In this document: piece after piece, positions 60,991 to 63,705 of the stretch | Layout: the number at the start of each line of letters is the position of its first letter | How positions within the stretch are numbered: position 1 is the stretch's first letter | IMG/VR virus record: IMGVR_UViG_3300012924_000001 | Coordinates: 1-64,000 of that record | From: a virus | DNA length: 64,000 nucleotides | Strand: one strand, 5' to 3' | Made by a program: the position numbers and the translations under genes | Notes under the pieces: generated by a model | Databases searched by the model: none | Seen by the model: only the letters and a program-made list of their open reading frames with translations | Told to the model about the DNA's origin: nothing

Positions 60991-61584
60991 TTATTGAGGT
61001 TTAGTATTTATCATAATTTCAGAATGGCGTTTTATCCCAGCGGCTTTCACCTCTTGATCTTTTGCAAATAGATCTGGATACATTTCCTTTAAAATCGTGA
61101 GGTCTTTTGCCTCCTGGCTCTTTTCGATAAGAAATAAGACCTCTCCTTTCCTGGAGATAATTTCATGTGTTTCCTCTTCGGTATCCTTCTTGTCCTCTGT
61201 GGGAATAAGAAACATCTGCAATAGCACATATTTTAGAGCAGCGCTCATAGCCTTGTTACATCCTTTGTCTCCACTGTCCATTGCCTCCCCGATCATCGTA
61301 GCTTGGATATTGCTACCATCTTGTGTATAGAATGTAAATTCCACATGCACAAGGGTCCATATAAGTGCTTTATCTTTAGAACTTTGACGTTCTTCGCGGT
61401 CAAGCTTTATAACCTTTGGAGATATGAATACATCATTTTTTGCAAAGATGGGATGCAGCTCGTTATAGACATCATCAATGCCCCTGAAGTTATAGTTCTG
61501 TGTTTGATTCCTTTTATCCTTCCCGATAAAATCAATAGCATTGAGGATATTAATGATGCGTTGATATATAAAAGACGGTTCCAT
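60991..61584 (-). CDS. ERF-family ssDNA-annealing protein
   Basis: YNFRGIDDV..GEAMDSGDKGCNKAMSAALKY; start moved to 61584 because the upstream part is tRNA-like. Confidence 0.85.
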   Translation of the reverse strand: MEPSFIYQRIINILNAIDFIGKDKRNQTQNYNFRGIDDVYNELHPIFAKNDVFISPKVIKLDREERQSSKDKALIWTLVHVEFTFYTQDGSNIQATMIGEAMDSGDKGCNKAMSAALKYVLLQMFLIPTEDKKDTEEETHEIISRKGEVLFLIEKSQEAKDLTILKEMYPDLFAKDQEVKAAGIKRHSEIMINTKPQ

Positions 61585-61599
61585 AATAAGATAAGTATG

Positions 61600-61667
61600 A
61601 GCTATGTCCAGGGGTCGAACCCGGATCTCCTCCTTCAGGAAGAATCTTGCCATTAGACCAACACAGC
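61600..61667 (-). tRNA. tRNA-like element with 4-nt anticodon loop (no assignable anticodon, no CCA)
   Basis: GCTGTGT-TG-GTCT AATGGCA AGAT-T-CTTCC TGAA GGAGG-AGAT-CCGGG TTCGACC CCTGG-ACATAGC-T. Confidence 0.75.
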
Positions 61668-61678
61668 TACCATGAGAG

Positions 61679-62038
61679 CTAAAGAGAAGTTGAAGGAGGA
61701 TTAGTCGTAGCAGCTTTTACTGCCCACATTGCCCCTTCTTCATAAGCGGTTTGCGCCAAGCTGGCCAATCTCCCGTCAAGAGACTTTAGTCTTTCACAGA
61801 GATCAATTAAATCAGCTGACTTTTGTTTGATGTCATCTACGAGTGAGTTACTTGAGGGATTGAAAGAGACCCGAACACGCCGCTGCCCGATAGAGATAGG
61901 AGCGGTGTTTGTTTCCGGTGTTACTGTTAATGGTTCTGAGGAGGTGATCATTGCTGTTTTTTTTATGGATTTATCGATTACATATGTTAAAGCGAATAGC
62001 GCAAAAAGAGACGCTGCGAACTGTATAATTATATCCAT
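61679..62038 (-). CDS. Acb2/Tad1-like helical-hairpin protein (candidate signal sponge), possibly with N-terminal TM
   Basis: IKQKSADLID..GRLASLAQTAYEEGAMWAVKAAT. Confidence 0.6.
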   Translation of the reverse strand: MDIIIQFAASLFALFALTYVIDKSIKKTAMITSSEPLTVTPETNTAPISIGQRRVRVSFNPSSNSLVDDIKQKSADLIDLCERLKSLDGRLASLAQTAYEEGAMWAVKAATTNPPSTSL

Positions 62039-63107: not shown

Positions 63108-63258
63108 TATATTAGCGTTGTGTTTGCAACAGGTGATGATGATTATTCTGCGCGATTGTGATGATTTAGCTACACGATGATGACAAATATGCGCTGTAGA
63201 ATTGATAATAACAAATTTATTTTCTGTTTTTTTACATATTTTTAACTGTAATATATTT
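63108..63258. promoter_or_regulatory. divergent switch region
   Basis: Minus-strand TTTG..CATATTTG promoter; GATGAT-containing repeats near 63134, 63159, 63176. Confidence 0.5.
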
Positions 63259-63705
63259 ATGACAAAAGGACAAAGAATTTCAGCAGCAAGGCGCGCTAAA
63301 AGCCTTACTCAGCAACAGTTAGCAGATGCGTGTGGAGTTACTAAGAATACGGTTTCCCGGTGGGAGATTGGTAAGAATAATCCAGATCAGGAGCGGATAG
63401 TTCAAATTGCCACTGCTGTGGGCTTTGATGTTGCTTATTTTGATTTTGAAGATGATATCTCAGTTGGCCATACACCGTTATTAGATATAACTGTTACACC
63501 CGAACGAGCCGTTATGATAATGATAGTCTCTTCGATCTTGGATTTAGGTGAAGCAGTGCAAGATTTATCAATGCAAATAATCGATATGAGGGAAGTGCTT
63601 CTATTTACCGAGCAGGGGGAGACTGGTCAGAAGAAAAAGCAGCAGATGGAGAAGATGGAGCTAAAGATGGAAATGATAAGAAAAGCCATGCAAGCGCTTC
63701 AATAG
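63259..63705 (+). CDS. CI-like XRE repressor without S24 peptidase domain
   Basis: ARRAKSLTQQQLADACGVTKNTVSRWEIGKNNP; coiled C-terminus. Confidence 0.8.
   Translation: MTKGQRISAARRAKSLTQQQLADACGVTKNTVSRWEIGKNNPDQERIVQIATAVGFDVAYFDFEDDISVGHTPLLDITVTPERAVMIMIVSSILDLGEAVQDLSMQIIDMREVLLFTEQGETGQKKKQQMEKMELKMEMIRKAMQALQ

Follow-up and report, generated by a model that had tools for sequence, protein, structure and literature searches.

A gene shaped like a transfer RNA (tRNA) but without a readable anticodon lies on the minus strand of a soil phage genome, running from 61667 (5' end) to 61600 (discriminator) between an Acb2-like gene and the gene for an ERF single-strand annealing protein. Positions are those of the window, the stretch of 64,000 nucleotides (nt) that was analysed (IMG/VR record IMGVR_UViG_3300012924_000001), which covers the first 64 kb of a phage genome that was recovered complete from a soil metagenome (78,334 bp, with direct terminal repeats). 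The presence of this gene was confirmed, and the comparison with related phages gives reasonable support for its maintenance. The best explanation, in which we place about even confidence, is that the 68-nt cloverleaf is a relic of a threonine-type tRNA that no longer decodes, that selection maintains as a tRNA-like RNA of complete L shape and that would be excised from the early operon by tRNA enzymes.

A tRNA cloverleaf with a four-nucleotide anticodon loop

The acceptor stem of the element (GCUGUGU/ACAUAGC) has 7 bp with one G.U pair and is followed by U8 and G9. Position 26 is U, and U26-A44 is able to add a sixth pair to the anticodon stem. The variable region is AGAU (4 nt), and the discriminator is U, followed by CAU. 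In the window copy all 21 standard pairs of the four stems are formed, and the nucleotides of the tertiary fold are complete (U8, A14, A15/U48, G18, G19, G53-C61, U54, U55, C56 and A58). Thus the features expected of a tRNA body are present, i.e., a 7-bp acceptor stem, a 4-bp D stem with G18 and G19 in its loop, a 5-bp T stem, a UUCRA loop, the Levitt pair 15-48 and U8-A14. A 7-nt anticodon loop with U33, a three-base anticodon and a purine at position 37 is absent. In its place stands UGAA, which becomes CUGAAG when the closing C-G pair opens.

ARAGORN reports the element as tRNA-??? with an 'anticodon' of 2 nt. The Rfam tRNA model RF00005 gives it 38.6 bits against a gathering score of 29 (E 4.8e-6 with 2.3 kb scanned, E 3.9e-8 across the whole 78-kb genome), although a scan of the whole window with Rfam's fast filters misses the match. 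Among cultured genomes, those of Chitinophaga have the nearest ERF genes (49-53% identity), and a tRNA model of our own, built from 19 Chitinophaga tRNAs, gives the element 32.9 bits. It is the sole tRNA-type match in the genome. Its 38.6 bits are below the score of each of the 64 tRNAs of one Chitinophaga genome (at least 41 bits). Thermodynamic folding of the element alone is not significant (z -1.4), and the minimum free energy structure is 1.4-2.8 kcal/mol more stable than the cloverleaf; tRNAs commonly have a cloverleaf above this optimum. An intact cloverleaf with a short TGAA loop had already been described in an earlier, sequence-only reading of the window, and these results bear it out for the minus strand.

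The short loop could be followed into two further assemblies. X1, the independent Logan assembly of the probable source run, is identical to the window (depth 31). X2 is a 151-nt contig from an unrelated freshwater run of 2025 which covers 61568-61718; it has the same 4-nt loop, and its sole difference is at 61604, where the wobble pair G4.U69 is changed to G-C. Since both X1 and X2 carry UGAA, the 4-nt loop is real and no assembly artefact. With its recurrence in an independent sample, the short form is not clearly a fresh lesion either.

Further searches with the element itself gave little. In the phage GenBank collection there was no DNA match to it, and the ERF relatives found there are below 48% identity. 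A DNA-pattern scan of metagenomes gave 0 matches. Pattern scans of IMG/VR returned only unrelated tRNA-Gln/Glu genes and a weak 63-nt tRNA-like sequence (L025:9792-9854/L027), which has no Rfam match at E<=1 and reaches 24 bits on our own model. Among the public runs that carry the stretch no RNA run is listed.

Conservation of the fold and non-canonical anticodon loops in related phages

The closest homologues of the ERF protein are P0001, P0002 and P0003 with 92%, 72% and 66% identity. The contig of P0001, a 19,142-nt soil contig called X4 here, has ~88% DNA identity to the window across 61300-62000. Its copy of the element was rebuilt from read-layout difference tables, in which 27 differences are unlisted and the listed ones are in order up to 61676. 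It was taken as complete, as the rebuilt copy folds perfectly. A second orthologue was found in L028, a 74.6-kb metagenome contig with an ERF protein of 68% identity, where the gene order is kept from the repressor to beyond ERF. The window together with X2, X4 and L028 thus make up three lineages, and in all of them the element occupies the same slot in the same orientation: the stop codon of the Acb2-like gene, 11-14 nt, the tRNA-like sequence, 13-16 nt and the ERF start.

When the copies were segmented by tRNA position, double compensatory changes were found at 8 of the 21 stem pairs, namely the fourth and fifth of the acceptor stem, the third and fourth of the D stem, the second and fifth of the anticodon stem and the first two of the T stem. 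The double changes in the D stem are those of L028, and at the two T-stem pairs C-G is replaced by U-A in both X4 and L028. The covariation includes a double transversion from U-A to A-U, for which no wobble intermediate is possible. No copy has more than two broken pairs; the window has none and X4 has one (20/21 intact). The tertiary-fold nucleotides are unchanged across the lineages, and the T loop is identical in the window and X4 and differs at one base in L028 (UUCGACU, position 60). In simulations in which the observed numbers of transitions and transversions were placed at random, the finding that the window and L028 have at most two broken pairs, though they differ at 20 of the 57 positions that can be compared, had a P of 0.003 to 5e-6, depending on the direction. 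Between the window and X4 there are 8 changes in 57 positions, with one complete compensation from C-G to U-A. Stem-preserving change of this kind is, by comparison of the copies, an RNA-level signature. The earlier statement that the intact stems speak against random decay is upheld insofar as compensatory changes have preserved each arm in both orthologues.

In contrast to the stems, the anticodon end is not kept. The window and X2 have the arm CUUCC-UGAA-GGAGG, whereas X4 has CUUCG-UACCA-GGAAG (15 nt). ARAGORN draws a 7-nt loop with U33/A37 and an 'anticodon' ACC for X4, but only via a shifted register in which nucleotide 26 is dropped and the variable region has 3 nt. In L028 the arm has its full length of 17 nt, and the loop GCUGUGA contains a UGU anticodon, yet with C33 and G37. 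As a control, 20 of 20 sampled Chitinophaga tRNAs have 7-nt loops with U33. So no two of the loops in the three lineages are alike and none is canonical. The loop end also changes fastest: between the window and X4, 3 substitutions and 1 indel fall in or beside the 4-nt loop. On the simplest reading, the common ancestor of the three lineages could already do without decoding by this gene, while independent losses are possible. As its relative L028 has a 7-nt loop, the short loop is a derived state which arose by deletion in a threonine-type tRNA gene. The sequence-only reading had expected relatives with a normal loop in case of an assembly error or a recent deletion. This expectation is borne out by half: the loop of L028 does have 7 nt, but it is non-canonical at positions 33 and 37, and the short loop recurs in X2.

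The body of the gene is threonine-type as judged from three likenesses, to Chitinophaga tRNA-Thr, to phage tRNA-Thr genes and to L028, which reads Thr-UGU. In Chitinophaga tRNA-Thr(GGU) one strand of the anticodon stem is likewise CUUCC, paired there with GGAAG as in X4, the acceptor likewise begins with GCUGU, and the 3' end is the same, with acceptor AGC, U73, C74 and A. The 3' signature derived from the orthologues retrieves mostly phage tRNA-Thr(UGU) genes (57 of 91 matches), and these genes also carry the strand CUUCC. The acceptor pairs G1-C72 and C2-G71, which are threonine determinants in E. coli, are present in the element, and the anticodon determinants are absent. Threonine identity rests on acceptor-stem pairs together with anticodon nucleotides (PMC9976931). 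No clear isotype emerged when the element was compared by BLAST with ~1000 phage tRNAs. No match of more than 24 nt to the element was found in two Chitinophaga genomes, and no close tRNA of the host genus. An origin from tRNA-Gln(UUG) by deletion of UUU was also considered and was dropped, as L028 and the alignment with Chitinophaga tRNA-Thr indicate threonine. Separately, three phage tRNA-Thr(UGU)-like genes with a normal loop (UUUGUAA) and an odd D region were seen (L168:2428-2501, L172:3757-3830 and L210:1582-1655); they are missed by ARAGORN and reach 27-33 bits on our own model.

The 3' end of the element, where CAT stands in place of CCA, had been noted as an oddity, but it is the norm of the host genus: an encoded CCA is absent in 17 of 20 sampled Chitinophaga polysaccharea tRNA genes (L218-L237), and all 17 have a C after the discriminator. 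This C suggests a 3' processing which leaves or uses C74. For the element the same 3' end would imply 3' processing followed by CCA addition.

Operon context, predicted processing and alternative readings

The Acb2-like gene, the element and ERF are all on one strand, and the genes form a leftward early operon which diverges from a CI-like repressor gene (63202-63705). The Pfam matches of the two neighbours (Table 1) corroborate the location given in the sequence-only reading.

Table 1. Coordinates of the tRNA-shaped gene, its arms and its neighbours in the window.
Feature	Position	Strand	Evidence and remarks
tRNA-shaped gene, threonine-type body, no readable anticodon	61600..61667	minus	ARAGORN, RF00005, own model, covarying orthologues
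Anticodon arm, 14 nt instead of 17	61629..61642	minus	sequence; stem 61642-61638/61633-61629 (CUUCC/GGAGG), loop 61637-61634 (UGAA)
T arm CCGGG-UUCGACC-CCUGG	61608..61624	minus	sequence
D arm GUCU-AAUGGCA-AGAU with G18, G19	61644..61658	minus	sequence
Acb2/Tad1-hairpin open reading frame, domain C-terminal	61679..62038	minus	Pfam PF24729, 2.9e-13
ERF single-strand annealing protein gene, 197 aa, start MEPSF	60991..61584	minus	Pfam PF04404, 2.1e-19
Spacer between Acb2-like stop and tRNA-like 5' end, 11 nt	61668..61678	minus	sequence; 14 nt in L028
A/U-rich spacer between discriminator and ERF start, 15 nt, begins CA	61585..61599	minus	sequence; 16 nt in X4, 13 nt in L028

No terminator-like site was found between the Acb2-like gene and ERF, and no Bacteroidota-type promoter consensus near the element. 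A sigma-70-like promoter at 61610-61583 was rejected, because the -10 box would run into the ERF start codon and the consensus is not one used by the host group. As the spacers are tight, the genes are on the same strand and there is neither room nor signal for a separate promoter or terminator, the element is likely co-transcribed with its neighbours in a polycistronic RNA. The layout known from t-elements and tRNA punctuation, with coding regions directly flanking a tRNA-like sequence on the same strand, is found in the window and likewise in X4 and L028.

For both neighbours the reading frame needs a comment. All close ERF homologues start with MEP or MEE. A longer open reading frame from 61653 (an ATG in the D loop) into ERF is spurious, since the homologues start with MEP and two 1-nt insertions in X4 break the frame. 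In the open reading frame at 61679-62038 an N-terminal hydrophobic, membrane-like segment is fused in frame to the Acb2/Tad1 hairpin. In L028 this segment is a separate open reading frame of 28 codons with its own stop, and no ordinary start codon opens the frame of the hairpin domain, so that it is uncertain where the gene in the window really starts.

In the mechanism we propose, the element would descend from a threonine-type tRNA that has lost its readable anticodon loop. RNase P of the host would cut at the 5' end at 61667, and the host tRNA 3' machinery would act by a cleavage of the RNase Z type near U73/C74, followed by CCA addition. The cuts would release a stable RNA of ~70 nt, and the same cuts would part the Acb2-like message from the ERF message, leaving an unstructured ERF leader of ~15 nt. 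For RNase P and RNase Z, recognition depends on the helix of acceptor and T arm and on the elbow; the anticodon plays no part in it. Because decoding would not be required, the anticodon loop may drift while the cloverleaf stays. Such a process would be akin to mitochondrial tRNA punctuation or to plant mitochondrial t-elements. A processing signal for RNase P/Z in the early transcript was one suggestion of the sequence-only reading. The embedding in a transcript without room for a promoter or terminator of its own fits this suggestion; the cleavage itself is a prediction.

Several observations weigh against the maintained and excised relic. The pair-preservation test between the window and X4 gave P = 0.18 in one direction and 0.003 in the other and is only suggestive. 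The divergence of the element between these two copies (11 substitutions and 1 indel in 68 nt) is about the synonymous rate, which was estimated by hand at ~17%. Much of the strong covariation arose on the lineage leading to L028, in which the gene may still have functioned as a tRNA. A pure processing signal could dispense with the D and anticodon stems, which are nevertheless kept. Finally, other ERF relatives do without the element, including the closer L032 (ERF 71%). In L032 (285-659) the slot between a small gene with 'RIEVDG' and ERF holds what is by sequence an HNH/NUMOD-type homing endonuclease-like gene in place of the Acb2-like gene and the tRNA-like sequence, which makes the slot a swap point. 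No tRNA-like sequence was found in the slot of L029, L030 and L031 (ERF 56-59%) or of L108 (49%).

These points recur in the next alternative, a decaying pseudogene, a serious rival which is possible, if on the whole doubtful. Here a phage tRNA-Thr lost its loop by small deletions and drifts, surviving only through its short length and its place between two useful genes, perhaps still excised but without purpose. The near-synonymous divergence, the weak test in one direction and the dispensable slot would all be expected, and so would the tRNA score below that of all the Chitinophaga tRNAs and the four G.U pairs in the window copy where X4 has Watson-Crick pairs. A drifting gene would not be expected, however, to keep all pairs in the window and all but one in X4, with the tertiary-fold nucleotides and the T loop unchanged save for position 60 in L028. 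The C-G to U-A change is a true compensation between two copies which both have short arms, and the relaxation of the loop probably predates a divergence of 35% over which the cloverleaf was preserved (P 0.003 or lower). Moreover, useless DNA is usually purged from phage genomes.

A tRNA mimic acting in trans is clearly unlikely. It would titrate a factor that binds the tRNA body, such as a defence effector that cleaves or modifies tRNAs, a sensor or a processing or charging enzyme, and would be a partner of the Acb2-like sponge. The complete L-shape with D and anticodon stems, beyond the needs of a cleavage signal, argues for it, and the fast change at the anticodon-loop end could reflect an arms race. 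The adjoining gene is of anti-defence type and lies in an early operon, PARIS, retron and other tRNA nucleases are known to be countered by phage tRNAs (PMC11464382, PMC11555353, PMC10264068), and non-decoding tRNA-shaped genes recur in other phages. But the known counter-defence tRNAs replace a cleaved host tRNA in decoding, which the element cannot do, and enzymes that act on the anticodon loop or arm (PrrC, RloC, PARIS AriB, Schlafen; PMC13056530) would be faced with a foreign arm. For the host, no candidate target is known. Acb2-like genes elsewhere have no such companion: next to those in seven other phage contigs ARAGORN found no tRNA-like neighbour, with the sequence itself read only for L211. 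A decoy for anticodon nucleases or other tRNA-sensing defences, as put forward in the sequence-only reading, has no link other than the adjoining Acb2-like gene, and for loop-reading enzymes an RNA that lacks the anticodon loop makes a poor mimic.

An unconventional working tRNA, with doublet reading or frameshifting by a 6-nt loop or with isoacceptor switching among the relatives, is highly improbable. ARAGORN can draw a 5-bp stem and a 6-nt loop in the window, and readings with an anticodon exist for X4 (ACC, U33/A37) and L028 (Thr-UGU). These are, however, three 'anticodons' on one conserved threonine-type body without matching changes of identity, L028 has C33 and G37, the reading of X4 costs nucleotide 26 and leaves a 3-nt variable region, and in the window a C and a G close the loop to a UGAA tetraloop. 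Least probable is a DNA-level feature, i.e., an attachment site or recombination hot spot with a partial copy of a host tRNA gene: there is a resemblance to Chitinophaga tRNA-Thr(GGU) in the anticodon stem, the acceptor start and the 3' trailer, and the slot upstream of ERF is a swap point (the HNH gene of L032), but the cloverleaf is full-length and not a 3' half, it lies mid-operon ~6.4 kb from a 468-aa integrase candidate without Pfam match and with no such recombinase gene adjoining, no match above 24 nt was found in the two genomes searched from Chitinophaga, the presumed host genus, and the compensatory differences among the orthologues are an RNA-level signature.

Phage tRNA genes are usually read as codon supplements or, lately, as replacements for tRNAs destroyed by defence systems. 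A tRNA-shaped gene that does not decode but holds its fold in diverged phages suggests a third use for this scaffold, perhaps as a cleavage mark by which polycistronic early transcripts are organised, perhaps as a mimic that binds proteins. If true, either use matters for annotation, where such genes are reported as 'tRNA-???' or as pseudogenes or are missed; it also bears on gene expression in Bacteroidota phages and widens the search for anti-defence RNAs. More generally, non-decoding tRNA-shaped phage RNAs could form a wider class which is undescribed, with the top half of the tRNA (acceptor, T arm and elbow) kept, the anticodon arm truncated or replaced and processing by the host; the sequences from L145/L155, L172, L189, L143 and L003 described below would be further instances. 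They might act in trans as decoys for defence or host factors that bind tRNA (here with an Acb2-like partner) or in cis as a cut that releases a message 13-16 nt before the start in hosts without Shine-Dalgarno pairing. We offer this generalisation only tentatively and consider it rather doubtful.

Other structured elements and comparison with known systems

A number of other tRNA-shaped sequences were seen in phage contigs. In an unrelated phage (L145:4767-4831 and L155:4292-4356) a 65-nt tRNA-like sequence with a 4-bp stem and a UUU loop reaches 45.4 bits with the Rfam tRNA model, while ARAGORN is silent; it heads a rightward gene block, 15 nt before the gene for a putative DNA-binding protein of 63 aa (by sequence). 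Matches of 59 nt to the tRNA model without an anticodon arm are found at L172:1287-1345, inside a tRNA array, and at L189:3264-3322. A further short match in a tRNA array (L172:717-773) has an absent or altered anticodon arm, and at L143:222-293 the arm is capped by a GAAA tetraloop. ARAGORN passes over the two 59-nt matches and the one in L143 as well. Overall, the short matches in phage contigs span 57-72 nt, and their anticodon arm is absent, shortened or GAAA-capped. In a Chitinophaga polysaccharea prophage (L003:2792-2946, the same as L109:2292-2446) two tRNA-type genes are located directly upstream of ERF. The first is tRNA-Gln(UUG)-like with G33 instead of U and an encoded CCA, and the second is an 80-nt tRNA-like sequence whose anticodon stem encloses 14 nt forming a mini-hairpin; the pair scores 54.5 and 44.9 bits with Rfam.

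Three further structured sequences lie beyond the window in the same genome, on the minus strand. At 67716-67776 (L022:3716-3776) there is a compact three-way junction closed by a stem of 8 bp; one of its hairpins is small and the other resembles a T arm (GCGGU-UCAUU-ACCGC). The junction is located between two minus-strand genes, 13 nt before a start, and has a z of -3.4, with 0 of 200 shuffles folding as well; neither Rfam nor our own tRNA model matches it. Two sequences at about 73226 and 75318 (L022:9226-9284 and L022:11318-11375) show by eye the core motifs of hammerhead type (CUGAUGA/CCGAUGA, then GAAA). Their three stems pair despite differing sequence, and they lie 17-22 nt before start codons. 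No Rfam hammerhead family matched them even at E<=10 on 2.3 kb. In another relative, a DUF2693 RNA motif of Rfam (L009:2199-2360, 145.7 bits) is located ~640 nt upstream of the ERF gene.

Compared with canonical bacterial and phage tRNA-Thr (RF00005), the element has the same cloverleaf, tertiary nucleotides, 4-nt variable region, acceptor start GCUG, U73-C74 and CUUCC strand. It differs in its loop, which has 4 nt (UGAA) instead of 7 and is without U33, anticodon and A37, and the orthologues have other non-canonical loops.

Plant mitochondrial t-elements define messenger RNA ends via RNase P and RNase Z (PMC1920247). With these and with organelle tRNA punctuation the element shares a non-decoding tRNA-like sequence beside the coding regions of a polycistronic transcript. 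In difference to them it belongs to a bacteriophage and keeps all four arms, whereas t-elements often consist mainly of the acceptor/T domain, and cleavage of the element is only predicted.

The consensus of the Streptococcus small RNA SpF41 (RF02435) has a tRNA-like fold as well, with a hairpin of 5 bp and 4 nt at the anticodon position next to a GGUUCGAAUCC T arm. However, a D stem is missing from SpF41, which has a terminator hairpin in addition. The SpF41 model gives the element 19.8 bits (E 6.3) and the L145 element 24.9 bits against a gathering score of 52, so they are not members of this family.

The counter-defence tRNAs of phages include tRNA-Lys of T5, which counters PARIS, and tRNA-Tyr, which counters retron and Septu nucleases (PMC11464382, PMC11555353, PMC13096335, PMC10264068). 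They resemble the element in being phage genes of tRNA type with an altered anticodon loop among early or anti-defence genes. They decode and rescue translation, whereas the element could act only by binding: with no anticodon, and with three different loops in the orthologues, it is not a functional isoacceptor that could replace a destroyed host tRNA.

Among viral tRNA-like structures, that of brome mosaic virus has a 4-nt pseudo-anticodon loop (review PMC9976931). These structures are 3'-terminal in the genomes of plant RNA viruses, have a pseudoknotted acceptor and are aminoacylated, whereas the element is an internal, DNA-encoded phage cloverleaf.

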